DNA of 19,728 nucleotides from a bacterium (GCA_040752695.1 JBFMGO010000112.1:1-19728); one strand, 5' to 3'. Numbered from the stretch's first letter, positions 804-17,656 are shown. Notes: generated by a model not told the origin, from the letters alone. A program made the numbers and translations.

Positions 804-1280
804 TCATTTGACCTGTGCAATAATTGCTACATGATTTTTCCCATATTTTTGAGCACATTTTGGGCAGGTCGTGTACCACATGTACCATTTATCGATACTC
901 AGATTTTTGCTTTTTGCATATGCTTCAAAATCCGTGCACCACTTATCTGTATCTTTATATGGGCCTTCGTAAACTTTGCTTAAGAATTTTCCGGTTAAAG
1001 TCACATTATCTGCACCGGGTATTTCCTTGTCAACAGCAAGGTAGAGGTCCATGTTCCACTTCGAAGTATGGTCTGAAAGGCAAAGCCAGTCAGGGATTTT
1101 GGCATTCGCTTTTTCCACTTTTTCATTAAGGCGTTTCATGGCACTGCCAAAATTCATAGGTATATGGAAGATGGTGAATACTCTATCCCTGATGAACTTC
1201 TTGTGTTCCCAGTCAAGCAGCTTTCCATCCCAGGGCTTAGGGTCGAATTTTGGGCAACATTCCTTGTTTTCTCTGTTCAT
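804..1280 (-). CDS. Conserved hypothetical protein (CCPxFDPxxWD ... YTTCPKC family; possibly GyrI-like fold)
   Basis: 158-aa ORF with RBS GAGGTG; N-terminal ECCPKFDPKPWD, central KVYEGPYKD and C-terminal YMWYTTCPKCAQKYGKN are motifs I recognise from a widespread uncharacterised family. Function not assignable. Confidence 0.75.
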   Translation of the reverse strand: MNRENKECCPKFDPKPWDGKLLDWEHKKFIRDRVFTIFHIPMNFGSAMKRLNEKVEKANAKIPDWLCLSDHTSKWNMDLYLAVDKEIPGADNVTLTGKFLSKVYEGPYKDTDKWCTDFEAYAKSKNLSIDKWYMWYTTCPKCAQKYGKNHVAIIAQVK

Positions 1281-1581
1281 GTTTTCACCTCAATAATCTT
1301 ATTTTGGGGGATCATAAATGCTCAAACCTGTTTGCCTACAATTTAGGCATTATCTCCTGGCTGATTTTTTTTGCCTATGCATAAACCTGCCAGAAAAATC
1401 GATACGAAGATCAAGAAGAAAGGCATCCATCAAGCATGAGCCTGTATAAATATTTTACCTGCTTCAACGAAGCAACTCAAGAAATAAGCACCATATTCCT
1501 GCTCAGGGGATTTTGCCGTTTTAGGGTGGCACAGTAATCTCATGGGCACTCCGCCTTTGGAATAAACAGCATTATTGGTTA

Positions 1582-1611
1582 TTGACAAGCATTTATGTTA
1601 CTATGTATAAG
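1582..1611 (+). promoter_or_regulatory. Candidate sigma70-type promoter upstream of the ECF sigma cluster
   Basis: Perfect TTGACA (1582-1587), 18-nt spacer, TATAAG (1606-1611); an overlapping extended -10-like TGtTACTAT lies at 1596-1604. Confidence 0.45.
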
Positions 1612-1770
1612 TATCTGGTGGTCTTAAGGAGGAGTGAGAGAGTGCAGCAGCATCTCAGAATAGTGTTTGTGGCATTCAGTCCCTCATATGCAAACAACTG
1701 GCTGGTTACTGCTTCTGTTTAACTGCTTTCGCTTCCTCCTTTAGTGAACTTCTCTTCAGTTTGCCAGGCT

Positions 1771-1902
1771 ATGGATAAGAGCAGTTATGGATAAGAGCAG
1801 TTATGGGTGATACTTCAGCTACGGATGATAGATACTTCAGCCATGGATGACACTTCAGCCATGGATAAGAACTTAAGATATGGATAATGATCATATATGA
1901 AT
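1771..1902 (+). repeat. Degenerate tandem repeat of 16-22 nt units starting ATGGAT-like, running into the sigma start codon
   Basis: Units start at 1771, 1787, 1803, 1821, 1843, 1861, 1880 and 1897 (e.g. atggataagagcagtt x2, atggatgacacttcagcc). Confidence 0.8.
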
Positions 1903-2535
1903 AACAACCAGAATATTCCTGATGCAGAACTTTTGCGTGAATGCTTAGAAGGTAAGGAATGGGCATGGAAAATGTTTCATACAAGATTTAATCCTGCTAT
2001 CCAGGCTGCTATCAACCTTACAGCGGATGCTCAGGGAGTTAAACTTGCCCGGGAAGAAAGAGAGGACTGCAAACAGTCTCTCTGGTTTTCGCTGATAAAA
2101 AACAATTATAAAAAATTAGGGAGTTACCGGGGGATTAATGGGTGTACTCTGCGTTCCTGGCTCTGGGTCTGCGCTGTTAACGAGACCCGTAATTATCTCA
2201 AAGAGCGAAAAAAACATGCGCACTCTTCCCTTGAGGATTCTTCATCTGGCGAGAATCAAGATAATTCTCCTTTAAACCTAAGCCAGGGCAGGGAAAGTAT
2301 TGAGGAGGAGATCGCCCAAAATGAGCTGTATGCGATAATTATCCATATCATTGAGGAGCATCTGACGACGCGGCAGAGACTCTTCGCTCAACTTTATTGG
2401 CTTGACGGGGCTTCTTTCGATGAGATTCGGCATATTATGCATCTTCAGGACCAGGAGCTTTACTTATTGAAGCACAGAACCCAGAAAAAAATTAAACAAA
2501 TCTTAAAAAAACATTTTTGTCCATTTGATGACTGA
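1897..2535 (+). CDS. ECF-type RNA polymerase sigma-70 family sigma factor
   Basis: 212 aa; N-terminal DAELLRECLEGKEWAW; region 2 (EDCKQSLWFSL...LRSWLWVCAVNETRNYLK); region 4 HTH (LTTRQRLFAQLYWLDGASFDEIRHIM...HRTQKKIKQIL); followed by an anti-sigma-like gene. Confidence 0.9.
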   Translation: MNNNQNIPDAELLRECLEGKEWAWKMFHTRFNPAIQAAINLTADAQGVKLAREEREDCKQSLWFSLIKNNYKKLGSYRGINGCTLRSWLWVCAVNETRNYLKERKKHAHSSLEDSSSGENQDNSPLNLSQGRESIEEEIAQNELYAIIIHIIEEHLTTRQRLFAQLYWLDGASFDEIRHIMHLQDQELYLLKHRTQKKIKQILKKHFCPFDD

Positions 2536-2543
2536 AATGTAAG

Positions 2544-2570
2544 TGAAAGAAAAATGATTTCCTTTTGTCT
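2544..2570 (+). promoter_or_regulatory. Putative ECF promoter TGAAAGA-N15-TGTC (copy A) upstream of the anti-sigma gene
   Basis: TGAAAGA 2544-2550, 15-nt spacer, TGTC 2566-2569; same motif and spacing at 13676, 15839 and 19106. Confidence 0.6.
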
Positions 2571-2618
2571 ATTCTCATTGATACCTTACATTAAGCATCA
2601 TGCTCCTTAACCTGAACT

Positions 2619-3302
2619 ATGAGGGTTACTATGGAAGAAAAGAAATTTGATAAGTTAATGAGGGATGCTTTTTCCTGGACGAACAGTCAGAGGGAAAAAG
2701 GTAATGACCTGAAAGGCAAGGTTAAGGCAGAAAAGTGTTTTTCTGAAGAAACTCTTTCTGACTATCTGGCTTCTCGCCTTCCTGCTGCTGAACGGGAGGA
2801 AGTTGAAGAGCATCTTTCCTTTTGCTCTGACTGCCGCCAGCTATCGATCACGTTAATCAGAGTGGAAATGAGGAGCAAAATCTGGAGAGTCGCATTAGCC
2901 TGGGTTAAGGGCCAGCTTGTTTCACTGCAAGCAGATGCAGACCCCTTCTCCTTTCAGAATGGCCCTGAACCAGTTCTGGTAAGAGGTCATTCCCCTCAGT
3001 CGGAAACATATTCAATGCCATCATTCTCCAAAATTATCCATGGCTATAGGATTACGGCTCAGATCGAAGGGGAAGAAGGGATATGTGAGCTTTATCTTGA
3101 TGTTTCACCGCCAGCCGGTCAAAGCCTGGGGCCAGGGATGAGAGTTGATCTTTACCGGGCCGATCGGATCCGCCGTTCTTACTCAATGGAAGAAGGCGCA
3201 GTCCGGATAAGTGCAATTTCCCCTGGAGAATATGAAATAAAGGTTCGGGGAGGATCGCATCTGATTGCACTTCTGTCATTGAGTATTAAAGACACTGATT
3301 AA
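2619..3302 (+). CDS. zf-HC2 (ZAS-type) anti-sigma factor, apparently soluble, with C-terminal beta-sandwich domain
   Basis: CFSEETLSDYLASRLPAAEREEVEEHLSFCSDC fits Cx..HxxxCxxC; no convincing TM helix; C-terminal GMRVDLY...GAVRISAISPGEYEIKV resembles a transthyretin/carboxypeptidase-regulatory-like sandwich. Start may be ATG 2631 (GAGGG upstream). Confidence 0.85.
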   Translation: MRVTMEEKKFDKLMRDAFSWTNSQREKGNDLKGKVKAEKCFSEETLSDYLASRLPAAEREEVEEHLSFCSDCRQLSITLIRVEMRSKIWRVALAWVKGQLVSLQADADPFSFQNGPEPVLVRGHSPQSETYSMPSFSKIIHGYRITAQIEGEEGICELYLDVSPPAGQSLGPGMRVDLYRADRIRRSYSMEEGAVRISAISPGEYEIKVRGGSHLIALLSLSIKDTD

Positions 3303-3340
3303 TAAAGATACTGATTAGTAAAGACATTGAATAGTAAAGA
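3287..3340 (+). repeat. 16-nt tandem repeat (3+ copies) including the anti-sigma stop codon
   Basis: taaagacactgattaa / taaagatactgattag / taaagacattgaatag / taaaga. Confidence 0.85.
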
Positions 3341-3351
3341 GGGCTCAAGGA

Positions 3352-3440
3352 GTGAAGATGGGTGGAAAAAAAGTGAAGATGGGTGGAAAGAAGGTGGAGA
3401 TGCGCGGAGAGGAAGTGGAGATGCGCGGAAAGGAAGTGAA
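3352..3440 (+). repeat. 21-nt purine-rich tandem repeat (4+ copies) between the anti-sigma and CHAT genes
   Basis: gtgaagatgggtggaaaaaaa / gtgaagatgggtggaaagaag / gtggagatgcgcggagaggaa / gtggagatgcgcggaaaggaa. Confidence 0.85.
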
Positions 3441-3472
3441 CGGGAGATGCGGAGTAAAAGAGAAGGCAGAAG

Positions 3473-5662
3473 ATGATCACGGATGGTTTTCCAGTCAAAG
3501 ATAAGCCCGAAAAAGCGCTCTGCCTCAGAATTTCCAGCAATGGTCAGGAGTTGAAAATAACCCTCGAAGAGAAATCCCAGAGAGAGGAGCGCCCCTTAAA
3601 GCAATATGTTCCGGCTCTCATTAACCTGAGCGACCTTCAGTCGCTTTCTCAGAAGGCATTCTCCATTCTTCATCGGCATACTTATTCAGGAAAGAACAGT
3701 AAGGGGTGTGAGCAGCGGCTCAAAGCAGTAGGGCAGGATTTATACGATTCTCTTTTTCCCTTCCCGATTAAGGAAAGGCTGGCTTCAGCAGGAGCGGGGA
3801 ACTTATGCCTGGATGTCGATGATTCCCTGGTGGGGATACCCTGGGAAATCCTGCATGACGGTGAGGAGTTCTTTTGCCTTCAGTTCAACATGGGCCGGTC
3901 AGTCACTACTACCCAGTCTGTTCGCCAGCCTCAAGACCGGCATTCCGGGGCCGGAATCAGGATGCTGATACTGGCCGACCCAAAAGGAGATCTGCCAAGC
4001 GCCTATCAAGAGGGGTGGTTTCTTTGGCAAAAGCTCGATACCTGGAGTGATTCTCTCAAGGTTCTTTCTATGACATCCGGTATAACCTCTCAAGAGGTTC
4101 TTCGCCAGATTTCCCAGTGTGAGATGCTTCATTACGCCGGGCATGCTATCTATAACCAGGAGAATCCCGGCCTGAGCGGCTGGTGTCTTCAGGATAGAGT
4201 TTTGACTGCACAGGATATTATCCAAACCGCCGGGGGAAAAAAATCCTTTCCCTCCCTGATCTTCTCCAATGCCTGCCGAAGCGGACAGACCGCTGCCTGG
4301 CCCTCCGCAGAGCCTGACCAGTGGTTTCATCATGCTTCCGATCTGGTCAATGCCTTCCTAAGATGTGGAGTCCAGCATTATATCGGTACTTTCCAGGATA
4401 TTGCCGACCCGGCCAGCCGTGCTCTGGCCCTCTCCTTTTACCAATTCATGATGAAATCCTGCTCCATAGGGGAGTCTCTTCGCCAGGCCAGGCTGAAGAT
4501 TATCGATACATACGGACGGGATAATCTCATCTGGGCCTATTATATGCTCTACGGCGATCCGATGACCCGCTATTTGAAAAGGCAGGAAGAGGAGCCAAAG
4601 CCTGAACCGGCTCATTATGTGGACAGCGGGGACCTGATTGAGTCGCCTGAACCTTTTCCAAGAGGAGCACCGGACGGAGAAGTGCCATATGGAGGAGCGC
4701 CAGGCGGAGAAGCACCGGAGGGAGGATCGCAGGGCGGAAAGGCACCGGACAAAGGGGTGCTGCATGGAGGAGCACCAGAGGAAGGAACCTCGGACGAAAG
4801 GACTCCCCCTGATATCAGGCCGGATTATGCACCACCGGTCTCACAGCTACACGGTCAGGGAAATGAAAAGGGAGGGGGGCAAGGAAAACGGATATCGTGG
4901 GCACTGCCTCTGGCTGGGGGAGGAGTCTTAATCCTTGGCCTTCTTCTTATCGGAGCTTGGCTTCAGGGAACACGGCTTCAGGGAACGCGGCTTCAGGGAG
5001 CATTGCTACAGAGAACCAATCATCCCATTCATGTCACTGATTCTTCAAACTCCGGCTATGAGCCATGGGAAGAGAAGAAGTGGGAATTTGTCCGTGATAC
5101 GCTTTTGAATCTGCAGCAAAGGTACGCTGATTGGAAAGTTCCTGGAAGCAGCTCTTCTCAGGATGCCCCTCTTACTCTCTGTATTGTTTCGGCTGTACCT
5201 GAGGGGATGAACGATCAGGAGGTAGACAGCCGGTTGACTGATGAGCGATTGACTGATGAGCGGCTGACTGATCAGTTAATCGAAGAGTTGCATCTTTTTT
5301 GGATTCATCAAACAGGATTTCGGGTCGTAGAGAGAGACCGGCTGGATTTTGTACTGAGGGAGCTGGATGTGGCAACTTCAAAAGTAAGTGAGCCGAGGTT
5401 ACAATTTGCTCTGGGGAAGATTTTTGGAGCCAGGGGGATCTTGTTTGTCCGGGTTATCCCCAGGATCAACAGGTTTTCCCTCTCCCCTTTGAGCCGCAAG
5501 GCGGAAGTTTATCTGCGCTACGTAGACACCGAAACTGCTGTCATCCAGGCTATGGCTGCTGCATCCATCAAGGGTAGCGATGACCTGAAGAGAATCAGTC
5601 AAACCCTTGGAGAAGAAATTCTGCATAGCCTGCCGACAGCCCATAACCACTCCCTCTTCTAA
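3473..5662 (+). CDS. Membrane-anchored CHAT-domain (caspase-like, clan CD) protease with C-terminal CsgG-like domain
   Basis: CHAT motifs LVGIPWEILHDG, MLILADPKGDLPSAYQE, LHYAGHA (His224), IFSNACRSG (Cys268), IGESLRQAR, WAYYMLYGDP; Gly/Pro repeat linker; hydrophobic helix ISWALPLAGGGVLILGLLLIGAWL (~aa 474-497); C-terminal GFRVVERDRLDFVLREL...LGKIFGARGIL...RYVDTETAVI is CsgG/TolB-N-like. Confidence 0.88.
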   Translation: MITDGFPVKDKPEKALCLRISSNGQELKITLEEKSQREERPLKQYVPALINLSDLQSLSQKAFSILHRHTYSGKNSKGCEQRLKAVGQDLYDSLFPFPIKERLASAGAGNLCLDVDDSLVGIPWEILHDGEEFFCLQFNMGRSVTTTQSVRQPQDRHSGAGIRMLILADPKGDLPSAYQEGWFLWQKLDTWSDSLKVLSMTSGITSQEVLRQISQCEMLHYAGHAIYNQENPGLSGWCLQDRVLTAQDIIQTAGGKKSFPSLIFSNACRSGQTAAWPSAEPDQWFHHASDLVNAFLRCGVQHYIGTFQDIADPASRALALSFYQFMMKSCSIGESLRQARLKIIDTYGRDNLIWAYYMLYGDPMTRYLKRQEEEPKPEPAHYVDSGDLIESPEPFPRGAPDGEVPYGGAPGGEAPEGGSQGGKAPDKGVLHGGAPEEGTSDERTPPDIRPDYAPPVSQLHGQGNEKGGGQGKRISWALPLAGGGVLILGLLLIGAWLQGTRLQGTRLQGALLQRTNHPIHVTDSSNSGYEPWEEKKWEFVRDTLLNLQQRYADWKVPGSSSSQDAPLTLCIVSAVPEGMNDQEVDSRLTDERLTDERLTDQLIEELHLFWIHQTGFRVVERDRLDFVLRELDVATSKVSEPRLQFALGKIFGARGILFVRVIPRINRFSLSPLSRKAEVYLRYVDTETAVIQAMAAASIKGSDDLKRISQTLGEEILHSLPTAHNHSLF
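4664..4812 (+). repeat. 15-nt (5-aa) period repeat in the CHAT linker
   Basis: GAPDG EVPYG GAPGG EAPEG GSQGG KAPDK GVLHG GAPEE; further 15-nt repeats encode LQGTR (~4961-5005) and RLTDE (~5231-5275). Confidence 0.75.
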
Positions 5663-5712
5663 AGAGGAATGGGGGGTATTAACATAAAATATACCTGTAG
5701 AAGTAAGATAAA

Positions 5713-8202
5713 ATGAAAAAATCCATGAGGATCAATCACCTCTGTACATCTTCTCTGTGCGTACTCATCCTCTGCCTGGTCTTCTGGAGCTTTGTTTTCA
5801 CCGGCTGTGCTCTCCATCCGCCTGAACCTTGTCTCAAGGAGGGCCGTATCTATGGATTGACCGATGACTGGATCATAAGCCAGGACTGGGATAGCTGTTA
5901 CCGCCGGGCGATTTCCTATGCTCAGGGCGGGTGCCGTGAGCAGGCTATGGACCAGTTTCTTCAGGCCATCCGGCAGAGGCCGGATGATCAGTGGCGAGCC
6001 CGGACCTATGGCATGCACGTTCTGAATGAATATTTTCCCCATCGGGAGTTGGGGCTTCTCTACCTCCAACAGGACGATCTAAAGGAGGCTATCAGGGAAC
6101 TTTCGATCTCATTGAGCTCGGCAGATTCAGCCAAAGCCAAGTACTACCTCAATCAGGCTCGCAGGCGATGGCTTGAAAAGACAGGCATGGACCATTTCCC
6201 TCCGGGATTCCGGTTCCCGTGGCAAGGTGCAAGAAAAGTTGAAGCGGTTAGCGACAGCGAAGCTTTTAGCGAGAGCAAAGAGATTGGCGAGAGCGAAGCG
6301 GTTGGTGATAGCGAAAAGATTGAAGAGAGCGAAGCGGCTGGCGAGAGCGAGGAGGTTGAAGAGAGCGGGATGATATATACCAACAGTTCTGCCTATCAGA
6401 TCAATGGCCAGGCTGTAGACGATTTCTTTGTCTCTTCGATTCTGGTCGATGATCAACCTCTCTTCCTTGATCTTGCCCAGCCTGCAATCAGTTTTAAAAA
6501 GGAGGTAGCTCTTAAACCGGGCCTTAACCGCTTTCCCATGAAGGTAATAGATCTGGTTGGGCGTACGTATCAGGAGGAGGTCCTGATTTTTCTGGATCAG
6601 CAGGGGCCGACCGTTATCTTCAGTCCGGCGCATTTTCCGGAAAGACCTCCGGAGCATCTTGCGGAAAGACCCGGCCCCGGCAGTTCATCGTCAGTGAAGC
6701 AGGTTCCTGGTGGAGGGGGAATGCGGATCAGGGGCTTGATCTTTGATGATGGCGGCCTGGCAAGGCTGACAGTCGCCGGGGAAGATATCCCTCTGGTTCG
6801 GGGGTTGAGAATGAAAGAGTTTCAGGTAGAGACATCTTCCCTGCTCAGCGCAGCCGGAAGGGCAACCTTCTGGGCCGCGGATCTGGCAGGTAATATTACC
6901 AGCGGAGATTTATCCTGGATAGAGGATAGAAAGGATAGAGGGGATAGAGAGGATAGAGAAGATAGAGTGCACAGAGAAGATAGAGAGGGTAGAGAGTATA
7001 GAGAAGAGCATAGAGAACACGGAGAGAATACCGGCCAGCCTGTTATGGTTGCGGATAATAGTCCATTTCTGCCCCTGCCTGTTAAGGGAGAACTGTCCGG
7101 TGCATCACAGAAGGCTCCCGAAATCTTCATCAGCGAGTTTCCGTCCATCGTTTTTCAGCCGAGGGCAGTCATTCAAGGATGGATCGAATCAACCAGAGAG
7201 ATTACCGGATTGTGGATCAATGAGCAGCCCGTATTCACGAGTCATGATGCTGCGGGCCTTTTCCAGACCTTGCGGCGGCTGTGGTATGGGGAAAGAACCC
7301 TCTTTTATTTTACCCGCCTCATCGATGGATTGAAAGAGGGAGAGAATCGCCTGACTATCAGGGCACATGATAAAGAGGGCAGATCAGCCAGCAAAGACAT
7401 CATGATGGAATATCATATTCGGGAGATTGACCGGATCGGGAATCGATGGTGTCTGGCTATACTCCCCTTCACCGGACAGGCAAACGAGCCGCCTTTTTTG
7501 GCTGATCCCTTGCCAGCTTCCTTCACCTCGCTTCATGATGGTCTCCACCTTTCCTTTTTCCGAACCGGGCGCTTTAGCCTGGTGGAACGGGGAAGGATCG
7601 ATGCGGTTATGCGCGAACTGGAGCTCCAGTCAAGTGAGGCGGTGGATAGAACGAGCGGGCCCCGGCTGGGAAATCTCCTCGCTGCTGAGGTTTTACTGAT
7701 GGGTTCTTTCCGGGAAGAATGGGATGGCCGGGACCGGTGCATGGAGATTATTGCCCGGCTGGTGGATGTAGAGACAAGCCGGGAACTGGCAGTCAAGAGC
7801 GTCTATAACCGATGGAAGAGCAGCCAGGATGAAAAGTACCTGCTGTCTGGACTGGCTCAGGTTTTTCAGCAGGAGTTCCCTCTATCGCAGGGAAAGGTTT
7901 TGGACAAGAACCGGCAAACTTTTCAGATCAGCATGTGTTCCGCCGACTTGATCAAGCAGGGGATGAAGGTCCTGGTGTTCCGTCCGACGGAAGATTCTCC
8001 AAAAGATCTTTATGAGGGAGGGAGCCAACAGGGGAAAAATCGTCACGAGGGGGGCCATCCCCCTCCGGAAGGGAAAGCCCGCCAGATTATTCTGGGTGAG
8101 GCAAGGATCGAAGAGGTGGCAGATTATTTTTCGCTGGCTCAGCCCTCACTCGAAGGGCTTCTGAAAACAATCCGGATTGGGGACCTGGTGGTTACGAAGT
8201 AA
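5713..8202 (+). CDS. Lipoprotein with TPR, Ig-like repeats, CsgG-like and FlgT-C-like domains
   Basis: Signal peptide with lipobox VFTG-C (Cys31); TPR-like helices around ARTYGMH...YFPHRELG; beta-sandwich segments (LKPGLNRFPMKVIDLVG, LKEGENRLTIRAHDKEG); CsgG-like LAILPF...FSLVERGRIDAVMRELEL...LGNLLAAEVLLMGS...RLVDVET; terminal beta domain ending IRIGDLVVTK. Internal 18-nt (~6241-6366) and 9-nt (~6919-7020) repeats encode acidic and xDR linkers. Confidence 0.8.
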   Translation: MKKSMRINHLCTSSLCVLILCLVFWSFVFTGCALHPPEPCLKEGRIYGLTDDWIISQDWDSCYRRAISYAQGGCREQAMDQFLQAIRQRPDDQWRARTYGMHVLNEYFPHRELGLLYLQQDDLKEAIRELSISLSSADSAKAKYYLNQARRRWLEKTGMDHFPPGFRFPWQGARKVEAVSDSEAFSESKEIGESEAVGDSEKIEESEAAGESEEVEESGMIYTNSSAYQINGQAVDDFFVSSILVDDQPLFLDLAQPAISFKKEVALKPGLNRFPMKVIDLVGRTYQEEVLIFLDQQGPTVIFSPAHFPERPPEHLAERPGPGSSSSVKQVPGGGGMRIRGLIFDDGGLARLTVAGEDIPLVRGLRMKEFQVETSSLLSAAGRATFWAADLAGNITSGDLSWIEDRKDRGDREDREDRVHREDREGREYREEHREHGENTGQPVMVADNSPFLPLPVKGELSGASQKAPEIFISEFPSIVFQPRAVIQGWIESTREITGLWINEQPVFTSHDAAGLFQTLRRLWYGERTLFYFTRLIDGLKEGENRLTIRAHDKEGRSASKDIMMEYHIREIDRIGNRWCLAILPFTGQANEPPFLADPLPASFTSLHDGLHLSFFRTGRFSLVERGRIDAVMRELELQSSEAVDRTSGPRLGNLLAAEVLLMGSFREEWDGRDRCMEIIARLVDVETSRELAVKSVYNRWKSSQDEKYLLSGLAQVFQQEFPLSQGKVLDKNRQTFQISMCSADLIKQGMKVLVFRPTEDSPKDLYEGGSQQGKNRHEGGHPPPEGKARQIILGEARIEEVADYFSLAQPSLEGLLKTIRIGDLVVTK

Positions 8203-8204
8203 GG

Positions 8205-8243
8205 GAGGAAGAAGAGTGAGTGATTTCTCCATACTTCTTCCTC
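8205..8243. terminator. Inverted repeat between convergent genes, possible bidirectional terminator
   Basis: GAGGAAGAAG (8205-8214) and CTTCTTCCTC (8234-8243) are perfect complements in the gap between two stop codons; no clear U-tract. Confidence 0.5.
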
Positions 8244-8249
8244 ATGTCT

Positions 8250-11200
8250 CTATCGGCGGCCGGAAAGAAGGAACTTGAGGGTTGAGATAAAGCAGCCTTT
8301 ACTGCCTCTTCCGCCTGAAGGTGTATCGCTGGGTGTATCGCTGCCCGAAGGGGAAACAGGAGGTGATAGTGCAGCACCGCCCGAAGGTGTAGCACTGTCT
8401 GAAGGCGTGTCACTGCCTGAAGGTATGCCTGAAGGCGTATCCTCGTCCGAAGGGGAAACAGAAGATGAAAGTGGAGTTAAATGGAAATTCATGGCTGTTT
8501 CTTCCTCCTCGATGACGCTAACAGGAAAGCTTACAGACTGATAGCCCTGCTTTTCAATGGTAAGAGTGATTTCCCCTGATGGATGAGAAATACGGTAATA
8601 TCCATTGGCGTCGCTTGTGGTTGAATAGTTGTCATTAGTTTTAAGGATCGCGCTGGCAATTGGTTTGCCGGAAGAGTTATCTATTACAATACCAGAGATA
8701 AACCCATTATCAGGATTACCAGGATCGTCCGGGGTACCATTATTACCATTATTATCAGGAGCATAAGGAGTATTAGGAATATCAGAGTTAGCAGATATAT
8801 CTGTAGGGATATCAGTGGTGTCAGGGATATCAGTGGTGTCCGGAGTACCAGGCATAACAGGAGTACCAGGCACAACAGGATTATCAGGCACAACAGGAGT
8901 ATCAGGCTGAGGCGGAGGAGGGGGAGTGTCTGGAGCCAAATCGAAGTTTACGCTTACTGCGGTAAAATCGCGGACCTCGACAGGGGAGCTTATGGGCTGA
9001 TAGCCCTGGCTGGCTGCGGAAATCGCAAAATTCCCCGATGGATGAGGAATGAGGTAAAATCCGCTTGTATCGCTCAACCCTGAGCACCTGCCATCGGTTT
9101 TAAGATGTGCTCTGGCAATGGGTATTCCAGAGGGTTTCTCCCTTACATGACCGAATATAAATCCACCGCCCCCTGTTGGAGAGTATAAGGAAAGGTTATA
9201 CCCGGTATCTTCTCCAAAAATGTTCGGATCCAATTGACGAATCATGAAATAATAGACACCATCCTGAGGGCAGCGCCAGGACCATGTTTTATTTTCACCC
9301 GAAAAGCTCCACTCCGGTCCGATTGGTGTTCCATTGGGGTCATGAAGCATGACGGCAGCGTCACACCTGCTGTTCTCATCGCAGACTTCGACGGTAATGT
9401 CAAATATATGCCCGCTTAATCCATAAAACATAACCCAATCCTGATCACCCGCATCATGGAAGTTATGGTGCTGGCCCCATCCGTTTTCAGCCCAGCCACC
9501 GGCAAAGACGATAGTCCTGGCCTGGCTCATAGAGTCATCGTCCTCGTAGATATCAGGGCCCAGCATCTTACGGACGACAGTCCGCTGAGGCAGGGACAGG
9601 TTGCCCTCCCGGTCAATTGCATACGCTGTCACATGGTAGTCCCCGCTGGTAACAAAATGCTCATAGGTTGCCTGGTAGCTGCTGCCGTCCGTGGAGGTCA
9701 ATGCTATCTCTACGGGCATCGAATGAGCATCCGGACACAGAGGGAGGTTCGGATCGAGTGCCGGTGGGGTGATTACTGCCCAGACTTTATCGATCGTGCC
9801 CGTTGTCGTTATGTTCTCGACCCGGATAGTGGCAGATGATGATCCTTTCAGGGTCTGCTCAGGCGAGATACTTCCGATGATCGGGGCATCCCCGGCCAGA
9901 AGAATACCGGTTCCAAGCCGGCAGCGCCTTGCCAGACGGCCGTCTTTGCCTGGCTCGCTGCCCAGGCCGTTGCCATTATCATCCAGCACCGGCACCTGAC
10001 CCCATGCAAAACCGATAGCAGCGCTGGCCGTATCAAATGCTTCCTTGACAGGTGCACCGTTTATGATCTTCTGCCAGAAGAAGGAGGAAAAAGAGATAGT
10101 CCCGCTACAGGGGAAGAAGGCGGGCTTATTCGGGCCTGTGCTGGCGATCAGGATTCTTTCCTTCTCTTTCGGTGGCGCTGATGGCGGGATAAAGCTCCCG
10201 GCATAGGAGGCATCGTAAATAACGGTCACCGTGCCTGGCAAAGAGCCCTGCAGGGTATCCAGCCAGGTGTCCAGTACAGAAGCGGAGAGCATTTGTGTCT
10301 TATTGATCCTGAAGGCTCCCGGCTCTCCCTCGCCTGTCAGGAAGATGATAAGATCCCGGGTACTGTTTTGTCCTGCCCATTCTCCAATGGCAGATTCCAG
10401 GTTATTCAGGGTCGGTAATGCATCCTGCCCGGTGAGATTGGCAGGGCCCAGAAAACAGATATCATCATCCATATATCCCTGGAAGATCAATGCCCGGTAA
10501 GCCAGGCTGGCACTCTTTCTTATGGCTGGTTCTAAAGAGGCCGTCGGGTCTTGTTCTGTAGCCACGATTATTGCCCTGTGCAAAAAGGGCCTTCCAACCG
10601 TCACGCTCGTGATCTTCGGCTTGGAGGTATTCCCAAGGCCATCCCTGGCATAGATGGCGATCTGATAGACCCCTTCTGCGTTGAAATCGTTATAGGTCCC
10701 TTCATAGCGGTTTGCCCCATTTTGCATATATTCCCCATTGCCCTCATTTTTCACCGCAGGCAAAAGATCGAGGGAAGGCAGATCCTGGACAGCATTGCCC
10801 GGTGATTCATGACTGTAATTGGGTGGCCTGACGATCGCCCATACATGGGCAATACCATGCTCGTCCGCTACCCCTTTTGCATAAAGAAGCGCAGAGGATG
10901 TGCCATGAATGGTTTGGTCCGGGGATACATTCTCTATTACAGGAGCATTACGCCCGGCAGATGGACCCAGGGAGGGATTCTGAGCGAAGATATCGTCTCG
11001 TATTGTATTGTCCTCCCCAGTGCCGTCAACATCCAGCAGGGGGTCCTGGAGCCCGGTGATGGACCTGCCGATGGCATCTTTCGTTGCGTCAAAAGCCTCC
11101 TTCAGACTGTTTCCATTGAAAATGAAGGTCCAGAAAAAGTTTGAAAAAGAAATCGAGCCCTGGTTTATAAAATAGGCAGGTTGCACAGGAGAAGTACTGG

Positions 11201-13481
11201 TTACGATAACCCGGTTCCTTCCTTGCAGAAAAGGGAGGAAGCTTCCTGACTGGCAGGCATCGTACATGACCGTCACGTGTCCTGCGGTCTTTTTCTGATA
11301 GACGTTTAACCAGGCGTTCAAATCTTGAGCGGGTAAGGTTTCGGCAGCACTCAGACGCAAGGTCCCGGTGCCCCCATGATCGACCATATAGACGGCTAAC
11401 TTCTTTGCATCCTGAGCCCATTCAGTAATGGCCTGGCGAAGGTTACCGGTTGAGACTGCCCCATCCACATCATCCATAACACCGTTATCGTCCAGGTCAA
11501 GACCGGTTTCCGGGCTCAGGTAAAAGATAGTCTCCTTGGTAAAACCGCGATAGGTCAGGGCCCGATAGGCGAAGTTGGCACAAAGCTGAGTAGCCGGCCA
11601 CAGATAATTGCCGGGATATGGGCCGCCACCGGCTATAACGATAGCCTTCGATATGTTTTCCTCCGGTTTTTCTTCACGAAAGACCTGAATCCGGTGGTTT
11701 TCAACATCCGAAACATATACTCTGCCATCCGTGCTTATTCCTATGCCTCTTGGATGAATGAACTGACCGGGACCATGGCCCCATTCTCCCCACTGGGTCA
11801 CAAATTGGCCATCGGAAGTGAATTTCTGGATGCGCTCATTGTCTGAATCAGCCACATAGATAAATCCGTTGGAGTCGATGGCTATGCCCTCAGGAGTGTC
11901 CAGCTTGCCAGGGTCAGAGCCACGGCTTCCCCATTGGGTCACAAATTGGCCATCGGAGGTAAATTTCTGAATACGATGATTTTCTGAATCAGCTATATAA
12001 ACAAACCCATCGCAATCAACAGCTATGCCAATAGGGAAGAAAAACTGGCCGGCGGCAGAGCCATGGCTTCCCCATTGGGTCACAAATTGGCCATCGGAGG
12101 TAAATTTCTGGATATGATTTTCAACGGTATGCGTCACATAGATAGACCCGTCAGAAGCAACGGCTATGCCATCGGGAGAGAAAAACCGGTCAGGAGAGCC
12201 ATTGCCTTCCAATTTGGTTACCAATTGGCCATTCGCTTTGTATTTTTTGATACATAAAGAGCCTGAATCGACCTCATAGATAAATCCACTGCGATCGGCG
12301 GCTATACCAATGAAAGCCAGATTATTGACAGAGCCGGCGCCTGTCCACTGGGTCTCGAATAAGCCTTCAGGGCTAAATTTTTTGATTCGGTGGTTACATG
12401 AATCAGCGACATAGACAAATCCATGGGGATCGACAGTTACGCCAGAAGGGGAGTTAAACTGATCAGGTCCGGAGCCTGAACCTATCCATTCGGCTACCAA
12501 TTGACCATCAGAGGTAAACTTTTTGACACTATCCTTGTAGGTATCAGCCACATAGAAAAATCCGTTCTTATCGATAGCTATGCCATCAGAACCGCCAGGA
12601 TTTCCCCATCGGGCTACGAATTGACCATCAGAGGTAAACTTTTGGATACGATTGTTGTTTGAATCAACGACATACACAAATCCATTGGGATCGGTTACGA
12701 TACCACAAGGGTGGGAGAACTGCCCAAGAGCATGGCCCCATTCTCCCCATTTGGCTGCCAATTGACCATCAGAGGTATATTTTTGGATATAGTGACCGGA
12801 CTTATCAGACATATAGATAAAACCATTGGAATCGATGGCTATGTCACCAATAGAATGAAACTTGTCAGGGTCAGAGGCAAGGATTTCCCATTGAGCCACA
12901 AATTGACCATCAAGGGTATATTTTTGGATGCTTCCGTTTGACGCATCGTCAGCCACATAGATAAATCCGTTGGGATCGATGGCTATACCAGCGGGCAAGT
13001 AGGGTCGTCCCTGACGGCGTCCCCATCTGGTCACCAGCCGGCCGTCAGAGGTAAGCTTATAGATATCACCGGCTACCACATAGACAAACCCGTTGGGATC
13101 GACGGCTATGTCATCAAGCCAGCCGAAGGATATATCGGGGCGCCCCCATCTGGTCACGAATTGACCATCAGAAGTGAACTTTTGGATACAGCTATTGCCA
13201 GAATCAGCAATATAAATATTCCCTTTTCGATCTGCAGCAATTCCGCTGGGATATTTAAAGTACCACGGCTGGGGCAGGGATGGCCACATGTATTCAAGTT
13301 TGTACATTTCGTCAGATGCTGCACAGGAAATGAGAAATTCACAGCTTATGGCATAGATACAAACGGTTAGTGACAGCATGATCAAGGCCGATGTTCGAAA
13401 AGCCTGGCAGCGGCTTTTCCCTCGAAATTTTATCATGGGTCTGGTGGATGCTCCCTCTCTGTTATATATAATCATATCCAA
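8250..13481 (-). CDS. Large exported protein: 12 NHL repeats, two C13/caspase-fold peptidase domains, PPC-like domain, two carboxypeptidase-regulatory-like domains, CFI-box C-terminus
   Basis: Hydrophobic N-terminal signal (true start may be ATG 13475 or 13436); 12 countable NHL repeats (PxGIAxDxxGxIYVADxxNxRIQKF); KAIVIAGGG...VYMVDHGG...MYDACQSGSF; a second copy FLTGEGE...IYDASYAGSF; PDIYEDDDS...GDQDW; GHVREKPSGIPIARA and GIVIDNSSGKPIASA; Pro/Ser/Thr linker then GGRGSKGCFISTL. Confidence 0.88.
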   Translation of the reverse strand: MDMIIYNREGASTRPMIKFRGKSRCQAFRTSALIMLSLTVCIYAISCEFLISCAASDEMYKLEYMWPSLPQPWYFKYPSGIAADRKGNIYIADSGNSCIQKFTSDGQFVTRWGRPDISFGWLDDIAVDPNGFVYVVAGDIYKLTSDGRLVTRWGRRQGRPYLPAGIAIDPNGFIYVADDASNGSIQKYTLDGQFVAQWEILASDPDKFHSIGDIAIDSNGFIYMSDKSGHYIQKYTSDGQLAAKWGEWGHALGQFSHPCGIVTDPNGFVYVVDSNNNRIQKFTSDGQFVARWGNPGGSDGIAIDKNGFFYVADTYKDSVKKFTSDGQLVAEWIGSGSGPDQFNSPSGVTVDPHGFVYVADSCNHRIKKFSPEGLFETQWTGAGSVNNLAFIGIAADRSGFIYEVDSGSLCIKKYKANGQLVTKLEGNGSPDRFFSPDGIAVASDGSIYVTHTVENHIQKFTSDGQFVTQWGSHGSAAGQFFFPIGIAVDCDGFVYIADSENHRIQKFTSDGQFVTQWGSRGSDPGKLDTPEGIAIDSNGFIYVADSDNERIQKFTSDGQFVTQWGEWGHGPGQFIHPRGIGISTDGRVYVSDVENHRIQVFREEKPEENISKAIVIAGGGPYPGNYLWPATQLCANFAYRALTYRGFTKETIFYLSPETGLDLDDNGVMDDVDGAVSTGNLRQAITEWAQDAKKLAVYMVDHGGTGTLRLSAAETLPAQDLNAWLNVYQKKTAGHVTVMYDACQSGSFLPFLQGRNRVIVTSTSPVQPAYFINQGSISFSNFFWTFIFNGNSLKEAFDATKDAIGRSITGLQDPLLDVDGTGEDNTIRDDIFAQNPSLGPSAGRNAPVIENVSPDQTIHGTSSALLYAKGVADEHGIAHVWAIVRPPNYSHESPGNAVQDLPSLDLLPAVKNEGNGEYMQNGANRYEGTYNDFNAEGVYQIAIYARDGLGNTSKPKITSVTVGRPFLHRAIIVATEQDPTASLEPAIRKSASLAYRALIFQGYMDDDICFLGPANLTGQDALPTLNNLESAIGEWAGQNSTRDLIIFLTGEGEPGAFRINKTQMLSASVLDTWLDTLQGSLPGTVTVIYDASYAGSFIPPSAPPKEKERILIASTGPNKPAFFPCSGTISFSSFFWQKIINGAPVKEAFDTASAAIGFAWGQVPVLDDNGNGLGSEPGKDGRLARRCRLGTGILLAGDAPIIGSISPEQTLKGSSSATIRVENITTTGTIDKVWAVITPPALDPNLPLCPDAHSMPVEIALTSTDGSSYQATYEHFVTSGDYHVTAYAIDREGNLSLPQRTVVRKMLGPDIYEDDDSMSQARTIVFAGGWAENGWGQHHNFHDAGDQDWVMFYGLSGHIFDITVEVCDENSRCDAAVMLHDPNGTPIGPEWSFSGENKTWSWRCPQDGVYYFMIRQLDPNIFGEDTGYNLSLYSPTGGGGFIFGHVREKPSGIPIARAHLKTDGRCSGLSDTSGFYLIPHPSGNFAISAASQGYQPISSPVEVRDFTAVSVNFDLAPDTPPPPPQPDTPVVPDNPVVPGTPVMPGTPDTTDIPDTTDIPTDISANSDIPNTPYAPDNNGNNGTPDDPGNPDNGFISGIVIDNSSGKPIASAILKTNDNYSTTSDANGYYRISHPSGEITLTIEKQGYQSVSFPVSVIEEEETAMNFHLTPLSSSVSPSDEDTPSGIPSGSDTPSDSATPSGGAALSPPVSPSGSDTPSDTPSGGRGSKGCFISTLKFLLSGRR

Positions 13482-14179: not shown

Positions 14180-15598
14180 GTGAAGGTGGCAATGAATTTA
14201 TCTACTCATAACAATTATAAATTTATCACCGTCCTAATTGCTCTTTTTTTGGTTTTTGCTTTTTCCGCCCCGAGTGTCGCACAATATTCCCTGTATCCAT
14301 ACAATAGCTTCTATGGAAGCATGCATGATGAGTCTGCCAGCTTTGCAGATTTTTATGATAATTACAACAATAGCTTCCACAATATATATAATGGATTACC
14401 CAGCATATATAACGAATTATCCAGCATGTACGGCTGGTTTAATGGTCCACAATATGGTGGATTATTCGATACCTGCAGCAGCAGTCGGCTTTGGGGAATC
14501 GGGGTCGGCAGCGCTTATAGCGGTGCCAATACGAGCTTTGGCAATCCTTACAGCAATTATAACGGTTGGTTGTATAATGCTCAATATAATGGTAATAGAC
14601 TCTATAGCTATTATAATCCCGGTGTACCTCTACAAGGCAATTCTTCAGAGGAAAGTGAAACCAATACCTGCGAATGCCTCTCATGCCACAATCCACATGC
14701 AACTCCTCCGGCTCCCAGATACGATATTCAGGGCACACCGAAGGATACTCAACTGGTGGGAAAGGTGAGTATCGACATCGAGGGCATCCTCTCGACGGAT
14801 GTAGACTTCTCCCAAAAAATAACGGTGCCTGCACACCGTCCCGATTTATTTGCACGGGGGCATTTCTCCGTGTTCGACCTGCTGGTATACCTTGACATGA
14901 ACAGCGATAAATTCAGCATGAGCTATCACTTCGATCCAAACATGGACACCTACCTGATCGATTCAATCAATGGATCGGGAAACTGGTTCTATCGCATGAA
15001 CTATGACATTGCCGGAAGCAGTGAACCCAATTATAAGGAACAGAATCATCGCATGGATTACTGCCTGGTCAAGGATAAAATGTTCATTCAAGTCAGGCAG
15101 TATAGCGAGGAGGAATTGCACATGCGGCATATCATATGGAAAACCGAGGTAAGCCGGAGAAAGGCGAACGGAGGAAAGGTGATCATTCCCGATGTGGTGA
15201 TCTGGCCCAAGAATGAAGCCCCTTTAAGGTTCAGGAACATATTGGTGACCAGCCATGACCTGAGAAAAGACGTGTTCGCCAAAGGAGTATTGACTGCGGC
15301 GGACATCATCCTTTCTCTAGCCGACCAGGAAGAATTCTCCTGTTCCGCCACCTGGTACGGGTATGTCGGATCGAGCGAGGTCAAGGGATACTACTTCGAA
15401 CGATTTAACGAGTGGGAAGCCAGCGGTATGTGCGGTTTTGCCTACACTTTTGGAGAGAGGATTTTTGAGCAAAGCTGCTGGCCCCCGTCACAATGTAACC
15501 CTCCAATACCGAGTCTGCATATCACTGCGGACATCCGGCTCATTCAGAATCCGGAATATATCCAATTTCGCTGGCTCGAGTCAGGACCCTGTGAATGA
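14180..15598 (+). CDS. Exported hypothetical protein with Tyr/Asn/Gly-rich N-terminus, one CxxCH motif and an internally duplicated C-terminal domain
   Basis: Signal peptide KFITVLIALFLVFAFSAPSVA-QY (start GTG 14180 or ATG 14192); CLSCHNPH at 14675; RPDLFARGHFSVFDLL and RKDVFAKGVLTAADII are 142 aa apart. Confidence 0.8.
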   Translation: MKVAMNLSTHNNYKFITVLIALFLVFAFSAPSVAQYSLYPYNSFYGSMHDESASFADFYDNYNNSFHNIYNGLPSIYNELSSMYGWFNGPQYGGLFDTCSSSRLWGIGVGSAYSGANTSFGNPYSNYNGWLYNAQYNGNRLYSYYNPGVPLQGNSSEESETNTCECLSCHNPHATPPAPRYDIQGTPKDTQLVGKVSIDIEGILSTDVDFSQKITVPAHRPDLFARGHFSVFDLLVYLDMNSDKFSMSYHFDPNMDTYLIDSINGSGNWFYRMNYDIAGSSEPNYKEQNHRMDYCLVKDKMFIQVRQYSEEELHMRHIIWKTEVSRRKANGGKVIIPDVVIWPKNEAPLRFRNILVTSHDLRKDVFAKGVLTAADIILSLADQEEFSCSATWYGYVGSSEVKGYYFERFNEWEASGMCGFAYTFGERIFEQSCWPPSQCNPPIPSLHITADIRLIQNPEYIQFRWLESGPCE

Positions 15599-17597: not shown

Positions 17598-17656
17598 CCA
17601 TTTCAAAAAATGGACGATTACCATTTCAAAAATAGACGATTACCAATGGACGATGA
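17598..17656. repeat. Short tandem duplication spanning the barrel gene's stop codon
   Basis: ccatttcaaaaaatggacgatta / ccatttcaaaaatagacgatta / ccaatggacgatga. Confidence 0.75.

Follow-up and report, generated by a model that had tools for sequence, protein, structure and literature searches.

A predicted membrane-spanning CHAT protease encoded with an ECF-type sigma factor and a soluble zinc anti-sigma factor: a conserved module and candidate envelope-to-transcription relay

Introduction

In several described bacterial systems a protease governs the activity of a sigma factor of the extracytoplasmic function (ECF) class. Here we compare with these systems a locus from a draft bacterial genome (6.05 Mb in 239 contigs), carried on the 19,728-bp contig C112 (GCA_040752695.1, JBFMGO010000112.1:1-19728), the whole of which is referred to below as the window. 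The locus encodes an ECF-type sigma factor, a soluble zinc-binding anti-sigma factor, a protease of the CHAT family with a transmembrane (TM) helix, and a lipoprotein. In two established envelope pathways, FecA/FecR/FecI signalling and sigma-E regulated intramembrane proteolysis (RIP; RseA/DegS/RseP), an outer-membrane barrel or an envelope cue acts on the ECF sigma factor via destruction of the anti-sigma factor. An outline of RIP is given in PMC11506125.

Proteases of caspase-like and other folds have also been linked to ECF-type sigma factors. In the CRISPR-associated Craspase system, the CHAT protease Csx29 relieves the inhibition of CASP-sigma by cleaving Csx30 within a small flexible loop that belongs to the Csx30 C-terminal domain (PMC10028731); the cut site lies around M427 and does not follow an arginine. 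Csx30 C-terminal domains are reported to fall into seven groups, one of which is DUF4384 (bioRxiv 10.1101/2022.08.17.504292). In a type III CRISPR system, CalpL/CalpT/CalpS, a signal-activated cytoplasmic protease cuts a soluble anti-sigma factor and frees an ECF-like sigma factor (bioRxiv 10.1101/2024.05.08.593097), and in Myxococcus xanthus an ECF sigma factor, DdvS, is controlled by the zinc (CHCC) anti-sigma domain of DdvA, which is functionally coupled to a CHAT module across the inner membrane (PMC11506125; PDB 8rot, 8rw5, 8rlz). CHAT or caspase genes have further been noted near ECF sigma genes, with proteolytic control proposed, in the ECF54 context (PMC8999054) and in EACC2-caspase systems (PMC8195603), while the available main text of the ECF re-classification paper (PMC7826278) mentions neither CHAT nor caspase.

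The gene module described here is real and widespread, and is apparently an undescribed variant of protease-gated ECF sigma control, in which the transmembrane receptor would be the protease itself and its bait a soluble anti-sigma factor.

Results

A gene unit conserved across phyla

The unit comprises the following genes (lengths in amino acids, aa; TPR, tetratricopeptide repeat; ZAS, zinc-binding anti-sigma):

1897-2535, + strand: ECF-type sigma factor, 212 aa (TIGR02937)
2619-3302, + strand: soluble class I (zinc-binding, ZAS) anti-sigma factor ending in a beta-sandwich, 227 aa (zf-HC2)
3473-5662, + strand: single-pass receptor protease, 729 aa (Pfam CHAT)
5713-8202, + strand: outer-membrane-type lipoprotein, 829 aa, with N-terminal TPR and Ig-like middle domains; lipobox Cys32 at nucleotides (nt) 5806-5808

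All four lie on the same strand with intergenic gaps of 83, 170 and 50 nt, in agreement with the initial annotation, which had described four co-oriented and closely spaced genes. Using the CHAT protein, 80 loci were retrieved in a scan of species-representative genomes; the open reading frames (ORFs) called in them were searched first with the window proteins and afterwards with an anti-sigma family profile. The source metagenome-assembled genomes (MAGs) are labelled Nitrospirota, Thermodesulfobacteriota/delta proteobacteria, Omnitrophota, Planctomycetales, Schekmanbacteria or simply 'bacterium'. A sigma gene is present in 63/80 of these loci, an anti-sigma gene in 66/80 and the lipoprotein gene in 38/80, so that co-conservation of the unit, whose absence would have counted against the initial reading, holds. 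Where 1.6 kb or more lies upstream of the CHAT gene (64 loci), single-sequence phmmer found both upstream genes in 45.

The genes usually run in the order sigma, anti-sigma, CHAT. The sigma and anti-sigma genes stay linked to the CHAT gene even where this order has changed: in two loci (L019, L026) the pair lies downstream in inverted orientation, and in another (L075) it follows the lipoprotein gene. In close relatives the anti-sigma gene often overlaps the CHAT gene by a few bases or directly adjoins it (L001, 7989/7986, and L024, 8004/8001, are examples). Chance is far from explaining the arrangement, whose gene order is found again in dozens of loci spread over several phyla. The genome also carries a second full unit on contig C41, consisting of sigma, anti-sigma, CHAT, lipoprotein and FadL genes, the last of these cut by the contig end.

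The sigma factor scores 45.9 bits with TIGR02937 (sigma70-ECF; cut-off 42.9) over residues 53-203, which places it in the ECF sigma-70 family; Pfam Sigma70_r2 alone gives a weak match (13.8 bits). A profile built from the locus homologues assigns 218 bits to the window copy and 202 bits to its C41 paralogue, the only sigma factors in the genome above 200 bits, against 77.6 for the next best. The window protein is thus a member of a distinct ECF-type subgroup.

With the type III-E sigma model NF041236 the window sigma factor reaches 32 bits against a cut-off of 100, and other ECF models score no worse. This weak match and the defence links of all three characterised protease/anti-sigma/ECF systems of such a style, as the cited sources describe them, are what speaks for anti-phage defence or abortive infection of the Craspase/CalpL/DdvA type, in which the protease would respond to infection and the sigma factor would switch on defence genes. 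We regard that role as highly improbable: PADLOC-DB gave no match for the four proteins or for the FadL barrel described below, no CRISPR or known defence gene was seen among the window ORFs scanned, and the partners in the module are envelope proteins. Membership in type III-E Craspase was likewise rejected, as those ORFs include no Cas7-11, Csx30 or Csx31 and the NF041236 score is far below its cut-off; the independence from CRISPR suggested earlier agrees with the ORFs scanned. A single weak PADLOC match (PD-T4-6, 21 bits) falls on the giant neighbouring protein introduced later.

Upstream of the sigma gene is a 616-nt intergenic region with two short tandem arrays (window 1770-1850). The first has a 16-nt unit, TATGGATAAGAGCAGT, in 2.3 copies with 100% match, the second a 22-nt unit in 1.9 copies, and ATGGATAAGA-like words are repeated as far as the sigma start codon. 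The arrays could be regulator binding sites or products of slippage. Scans of positions 1200-8400 for sigma-70 and terminator consensus sequences gave no excess over shuffled sequence.

A soluble zinc anti-sigma factor with an invariant arginine loop

Pfam zf-HC2 matches residues 44-73 of the anti-sigma factor at 33.7 bits (cut-off 22.2). The zinc ligands are H65-x3-C69-x2-C72 (nt 2811-2834) together with an upstream cysteine, C40; among 67 aligned anti-sigma factors, position 40 is C or H in 66, H65 is kept in 62, C69 in 66 and C72 in all 67. Compared with solved structures, the family profile matches RslA best (3hug_B, 5.9e-5), then RsiW, ChrR, the N-terminal domain of DdvA and RsrA. By its motif and its helical-domain profile matches, the protein is a class I (ZAS) anti-sigma factor.

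No 19-residue window of the protein exceeds 1.6 on the Kyte-Doolittle scale, and a TM-like segment occurs in 0/54 homologues, so that the two features first read from the sequence, an HxxxCxxC motif and the lack of a TM helix, both hold. For the same reason a membrane anti-sigma factor of the RseA/FecR type was rejected. Because the anti-sigma factor is always soluble, RIP-type control is unavailable to it and a cytoplasmic input is needed.

In an AF2 model of the protein, with a predicted local distance difference test (pLDDT) score of 84.6, helices at the N-terminus lead into a beta-sandwich made up of residues 88-105 and 136-225. The sandwich is interrupted by a loop (residues 106-135, pLDDT 59-68) that bears the motif P-x-P-V-(L)-R-G/S. 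The arginine of this motif, Arg122 (nt 2982-2984), is R in 67/67 aligned sequences; its conservation equals that of the zinc ligand C72 and surpasses that of H65. Y205 is also invariant (67/67). Judged from the sequences, the R122 loop is a plausible cleavage site. A Foldseek search with the model returned generic Ig/FN3-like sandwiches (best E 6e-3), with Csx30 and CalpT absent from the best 50 rows, and by this search the sandwich has no specific structural relative.

The family is large. Among 1.84 billion cluster representatives, 452 proteins match the anti-sigma profile at E <= 1e-30. Nearly all of the best 150 of these 452 have 190-283 aa and match end to end, and none of the best 150 is an anti-sigma/CHAT fusion. 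A few very long matches (3022-6305 aa) represent repeated beta-sandwiches, because the last ~55 profile positions are matched many times within them.

The conserved zinc site gives some weight to a different view of the locus, in which the anti-sigma factor itself senses a cytoplasmic cue (thiol oxidation or zinc loss, as in RsrA and ChrR) and CHAT, lipoprotein and FadL are output and not input, forming the sigma regulon of, for example, an envelope-remodelling or proteolytic response. ECF operons commonly contain their own targets, the zinc ligands are retained in 62-67 of 67 sequences, and the profile matches ChrR and RsrA are to redox- or singlet-oxygen-responsive proteins. Such a view nevertheless leaves three things unexplained, namely the conserved extra beta-sandwich with its arginine loop, the constancy of the CHAT partner while its outer domain varies freely, and the frequent overlap of the anti-sigma and CHAT genes. 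We consider it unlikely.

Compared with the family profile, the window copy of the anti-sigma factor is short of 24 consecutive positions after residue 86, all of them present in every aligned relative, including the C41 paralogue. The missing segment is helical and lies between the zinc domain and the beta-sandwich. The window protein may be an in-frame deletion variant.

A CHAT protease predicted to act in the cytoplasm

The third gene encodes a protein with three parts:

residues 85-362: CHAT domain, predicted cytoplasmic, with H224 (nt 4142-4144) and C268 (nt 4274-4276)
about residues 474-500 (nt 4892-4972): TM helix, from hydropathy
residues 528-729 (nt 5054-5659): periplasmic domain of TolB-N/CsgG/PelC/LpoB fold, from fold matches

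The first part belongs to the Pfam CHAT family (PF12770, clan CD caspase fold), which it matches at E 2.2e-28 over profile positions 2-289 of 289. A total of 120 relatives were found, of which ~20 are full-length at 29-46% identity. H220, H224 and C268 are invariant in 21/21 full-length homologues; from the invariance of H224 and C268 it follows that catalysis is under selection. Searches against solved structures were uninformative for the CHAT part: profile A1 had no match at E <= 0.01, the single sequence had one irrelevant match (E 0.081), and neither matched any solved CHAT chain.

Several lines of evidence predict that the CHAT domain is cytoplasmic. A signal peptide is absent from the N-terminus; counted over 15 flanking residues in 21 homologues, K+R come to 100 before the TM helix and 54 after it; relatives carry a class III nucleotide cyclase domain N-terminal to CHAT; and the C-terminal domain has a periplasmic fold and is homologous to a domain of the exported lipoprotein. 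This outcome agrees with the initial annotation, which had placed an intact His224/Cys268 dyad on the N-terminal, cytoplasmic side of one TM helix; an extracytoplasmic CHAT domain would have spoken against it.

One of the cyclase-bearing relatives is a 1082-aa paralogue in the same genome, encoded on contig C27 (L085, 425-3673, - strand), with an adenylate/guanylate cyclase domain before CHAT. The cyclase-CHAT architecture is common in Nitrospirota relatives, where proteins of ~900-1100 aa often have CsgG-like and TPR tails. It suggests that some family proteins have a second messenger as output or input.

For the domain after the TM helix, the Pfam CsgG match is partial (residues 598-661, profile positions 40-98 of 210) and marginal (21.2 bits, cut-off 20.8), and a sequence profile of the domain met only a chance S100 match among solved structures (E 0.95). 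Its structural model, with a pLDDT of only 74.3, gave the following VIA-align matches (rmsd, root-mean-square deviation):

TolB N-domain, 7mx5_B: Z 10.7, rmsd 2.6, 111 aligned
CsgG, 6lqh_A: Z 10.6, rmsd 7.4, 142 aligned
FlgT: Z 9.7
PelC: Z 9.1
LpoB: Z 7.5

Foldseek added GNA1162 (1.1e-5) and CsgG (5.7e-5). The domain thus has the periplasmic alpha/beta fold of TolB-N, LpoB, PelC and CsgG. The initial label 'CsgG-like' is sound at the level of fold; nothing indicates a pore, and for the CHAT protein a CsgG secretion channel was rejected, given the partial profile cover, the tether to an inner-membrane helix and a fold that is equally that of TolB-N, PelC, FlgT and LpoB.

Exactly one TM-like segment directly after CHAT is found in 69/80 of the locus CHAT ORFs, and the tails beyond it include LpoB/CsgG-like domains, TPR arrays, and DUF4384 with or without a trypsin domain. 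With one TM segment and variable tails, the family looks like single-pass receptors with a constant protease output. A variant in L019 is soluble and has an AAA ATPase module. DUF4384, one of the Csx30 C-terminal groups, is the extracytoplasmic tail in L012 and L077, and its sharing may reflect an evolutionary link between Csx30 and CHAT-receptor systems.

CHAT might instead control the sigma factor by another route, cutting itself, the sigma factor or some other protein, or sequestering the anti-sigma factor by partner switching through the beta-sandwich. There are precedents, in that DdvA is proposed to cut itself in trans (PMC11506125) and PCaspase cuts a putative sigma factor (bioRxiv 10.1101/2023.06.23.546230), and autoprocessing could take place in residues 370-470, the long linker of low complexity that joins CHAT to the TM helix. 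The linker sequence is, however, not conserved, the invariant catalytic dyad favours proteolysis over pure sequestration, and the arginine loop of the anti-sigma factor is the most conserved non-structural feature of the partner proteins. We therefore judge these routes, taken together, unlikely.

Two short repeats are in-frame insertions seen only in the window protein among 21 aligned: LQGTR x3 at residues ~500-515, just after the TM helix, and (R)LTDE x3 at residues ~585-600, in the periplasmic domain. The CHAT gene is apparently split in L008, L009 and L071, where an ORF of its own, directly downstream, encodes the LpoB/CsgG-like tail; the gene could be truly divided, or the cause could be a frameshift or an error of assembly.

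Envelope partners of the protease

The lipoprotein begins with a hydrophobic signal peptide ending in FTGC (C32). Its description as a lipoprotein with TPRs and a second CsgG-like domain needs qualifying in two respects. TPR_2 scores 25.4 bits in the window copy, just below the cut-off of 27, while same-genome paralogues exceed the cut-off (40.8 bits); and the CsgG match (24.5 bits, residues 607-665) is again partial (profile positions 40-97), a label at fold level. Residues ~600-760 are homologous to the periplasmic domain of the CHAT protein, and phmmer gives cross-matches between CHAT residues 600-720 and the lipoproteins. A strict lipobox regular expression fits 18/33 lipoprotein homologues, several of the misses showing by eye an evident signal peptide that ends in Cys and four (L014, L021, L059, L061) an ordinary-looking signal peptide, so these counts give no firm lipobox fraction. 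The window protein also has acidic low-complexity runs (ESEA..., DREDRE...).

Two further genes of the window, both on the opposite strand, concern the envelope:

8250-13481, - strand (convergent): giant protein, 1743 aa, with NHL beta-propeller, Peptidase_C13 and CarboxypepD_reg (Pfam)
17640-18998, - strand: FadL/TodX-type outer-membrane beta-barrel (Pfam Toluene_X)

The barrel matches PF03349 (Toluene_X) at 46.7 bits over residues 63-424 (cut-off 29.7) and is thus a FadL/TodX family member. FadL homologues (E down to 2.5e-170) occur in 32/80 loci, 28 of which also have the lipoprotein; the FadL gene is usually found either immediately behind the lipoprotein gene or between it and the CHAT gene. 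The FadL barrel is the fifth component of the module. The initial four-gene unit was therefore correct in its members and incomplete, having missed both the barrel and the recurrent giant neighbour.

We also compared receptor architecture with gene content in the 50 assessable loci, in which the CHAT ORF is complete and 4 kb or more of sequence follows it. There the LpoB/CsgG-like tail co-occurs with the lipoprotein/FadL pair: both are present in 27 and both absent in 19; the partners occur without the domain in 3, all of which have a split CHAT gene, and the domain without the partners in 1.

The giant protein has seven or more NHL repeats, and its Peptidase_C13 segment is legumain-like and, like CHAT, of clan CD. 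Close homologues lie beside the module in L023 and L034 (E = 0), with partial ones in L001 and L040. It may be a target of the module or a surface protein that the module monitors, and whether it is a member is uncertain.

Viewed from these neighbours, the locus might instead be a machine for export or sorting of surface proteins, in which a FadL/PorV-like barrel, a TPR/PelC-like lipoprotein and clan CD peptidases handle giant propeller/C13 proteins and the sigma pair merely switches the machine on. Genes for giant beta-propeller/C13 proteins do adjoin those for the lipoprotein or the FadL barrel, both in the window and in L023, L034 and L001 as well as on contigs C17 and C135; weak PorV and PorP/TraF-like matches occur in L024 and L044; and the periplasmic fold is common to the ring-forming export lipoproteins CsgG and PelC. 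But CHAT cannot process exported cargo, because it is predicted to be cytoplasmic. Moreover, the triad stands without lipoprotein, FadL or giant genes in 19/50 assessable loci, any match to the giant protein is found in only 7/80 loci, and neither an energy source nor an inner-membrane translocon gene was seen among the window ORFs scanned. An export machine is in our view improbable.

Elsewhere in the genome, a TPR lipoprotein gene is followed by one for a giant LVIVD/Peptidase_C13 protein on C17 (L084, 106-13602; 2386 aa) and on C135 (L087; 2489 aa). On C17 these are followed by a beta-helix-FadL fusion and then, on the opposite strand, by a third member of the anti-sigma family, beside which no family sigma or CHAT gene was detectable. 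NHL/LVIVD propeller paralogues are numerous in the genome (contigs C43, C15, C37, C32, C17, C135 and others).

Remaining features of the window

Two more ORFs lie between the giant and FadL genes:

14180-15598, + strand: ORF without Pfam match, 472 aa
16125-17456, + strand: protein with MopE-type metal-binding motif and thrombospondin type 3 (TSP3) repeat, 443 aa

The module is flanked by TSP3 or CarboxypepD_reg proteins also in L024, L007, L006 and L030. G+C is 0.40-0.44 in the first 3 kb, including the sigma and anti-sigma genes, 0.49-0.55 across the CHAT, lipoprotein and giant genes, and ~0.42 again at 13-17 kb.

Discussion

A proposed relay

We hypothesize a relay in three layers: a FadL barrel and a TPR lipoprotein at the outer membrane, a single-pass receptor with a cytoplasmic CHAT (caspase-fold) cysteine protease at the inner membrane, and, in the cytoplasm, an ECF sigma factor that would be bound by a soluble anti-sigma factor, whose zinc domain is joined to a beta-sandwich bearing the exposed arginine loop. 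A change in the outer membrane or periplasm would alter the association between the lipoprotein domain and the homologous receptor domain. This would activate CHAT, probably via oligomerisation as in other caspase-fold enzymes, and active CHAT would cut the anti-sigma factor after Arg122. The fragments would be lost or degraded, freeing the sigma factor for transcription, possibly of the neighbouring large surface proteins.

We put at even the chances that the protease, once activated by the envelope module, cuts the anti-sigma factor in its arginine loop and thereby frees the sigma factor. An envelope cue acting through the CHAT domain on the anti-sigma factor was already the initial reading of the locus, and co-conservation, CHAT topology and the invariant arginine loop have since strengthened it. 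Its core steps we continue to infer, both the binding and cutting of the anti-sigma factor by CHAT and the binding of anti-sigma to sigma factor, and this is the first of several points that weigh against the relay. For the anti-sigma factor and its presumed cognate sigma factor, the evidence is adjacency in 60 or more loci. Locus counts attest a conserved module and not independent events, because all loci were chosen by CHAT similarity and share ancestry. The window anti-sigma factor, with its 24 missing profile positions, could be an impaired copy. Zinc anti-sigma factors are also able to respond to redox by themselves. The FadL gene is 9.4 kb away on the other strand, so co-regulation within the window is not evident. 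A search of 57 sigma-upstream regions for 5-mer/spacer/4-mer pairs as a shared promoter yielded no usable motif: the best pair was common to 10 sequences, and the highest count reached in 20 shuffles was 9.

The cleavage site deserves separate comment. Many clan CD proteases prefer arginine, and a published passage on metacaspases backs this preference only partially. The arginine assignment combines such clan specificity with conservation, and it is weakened by Csx29, whose site near M427 is not an arginine. A complex prediction for CHAT 1-380 (alignment A1) with the anti-sigma factor (A2) scored 0.00 in two runs, gave no answer and weighs neither way.

More tentatively, and with odds we would place a little below even, the whole family may be bacterial 'receptor caspases', in which interchangeable extracytoplasmic sensors (LpoB/CsgG-like, TPR, DUF4384) govern a cytoplasmic CHAT domain that cuts a dedicated soluble anti-sigma factor at an invariant arginine loop. 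The subtype in the window, fed by the FadL barrel and lipoprotein, would then form a complete relay from outer membrane to RNA polymerase, distinct from two-component systems, RIP and TonB-dependent cell-surface signalling.

If the relay is true, it constitutes a new route from envelope to transcription in diderm bacteria, in which the protease spans the membrane and the anti-sigma factor is a soluble bait, with an output logic like that of CRISPR-associated Craspase in the absence of CRISPR. The family is large and occurs in little-studied groups (Nitrospirota, Thermodesulfobacteriota, Omnitrophota and unclassified MAGs) whose regulation has hardly been explored. The invariant arginine loop and the Cys268 dyad make a directly testable prediction, and the link to FadL barrels and giant propeller/C13 surface proteins hints at a so far uncharacterised structure of the cell surface, the state of which the module perhaps monitors. 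The triplet of protease, bait and sigma factor could also serve as an orthogonal switch for synthetic biology, as Csx29/Csx30 has.

Comparison with known systems

A full-text literature search, outside which most subscription journals lie, found no published description of the module architecture; the supplements of PMC7826278 on ECF gene contexts may bear on it. The novelty initially suggested for the architecture is therefore retained for the literature searched, while the coupling of caspase-type proteases to ECF sigma factors has further precedents in DdvA, CalpL and the ECF54 context. As described, ECF54 has no anti-sigma factor and has carboxypeptidase and subtilase genes in its context (PMC8999054), and EACC2 systems have other domain sets (PMC8195603); a soluble anti-sigma factor of the ZAS/beta-sandwich kind, a CHAT receptor with a TM helix, a lipoprotein and a FadL barrel are absent from both descriptions.

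In the FecA/FecR/FecI and RseA pathways, site-1 and site-2 proteases cleave membrane-spanning anti-sigma factors, whereas here the anti-sigma factor is soluble, the protease is the membrane-spanning element and the barrel is FadL-type and not TonB-dependent. TonB-dependent cell-surface signalling was rejected on these last grounds, the conserved barrel being of FadL type and the anti-sigma factor soluble. CalpL shares the logic of a soluble anti-sigma factor cut in the cytoplasm; it differs in being a Lon-type protease that responds to cyclic oligoadenylate via a SAVED domain, with no membrane or envelope component (bioRxiv 10.1101/2024.05.08.593097).

DdvA/DdvS resembles the module in joining an ECF sigma factor, a zinc anti-sigma factor and CHAT across the inner membrane, and the anti-sigma family profile weakly matches the DdvA N-terminal domain (8rlz, E 0.0087). 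DdvA, however, is one polypeptide with a periplasmic TPR-CHAT region and an incomplete active site, for which self-cleavage before RseP is proposed (PMC11506125), whereas the module has a separate protease and anti-sigma factor, a cytoplasmic CHAT domain, no TM helix in the anti-sigma factor and a periplasmic TolB-N/CsgG/LpoB fold. An anti-sigma factor of the DdvA type was accordingly rejected: the genes are separate, the anti-sigma factor is soluble, CHAT lies N-terminal to the TM helix and is predicted cytoplasmic, and no long fusions occur in the best 150 of 452 family matches. The TPR-CHAT protease class (separase, Csx29, the DdvA C-terminal region) was rejected too, only 84 residues preceding CHAT and the CHAT protein having no TPR match.

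Craspase shares with the module a cytoplasmic CHAT protease beside an ECF-type sigma factor and a soluble inhibitor, which in the case of Csx30 is cut in a loop (PMC10028731; bioRxiv 10.1101/2022.08.17.504292). The two differ in their input, a TM/periplasmic module here and an RNA-guided effector there; in their inhibitor, here a classical zinc anti-sigma domain, with Csx30 and Csx31 absent from both sequence and fold matches; and in the protease itself, which in our module carries CHAT with no TPR N-terminal to it.

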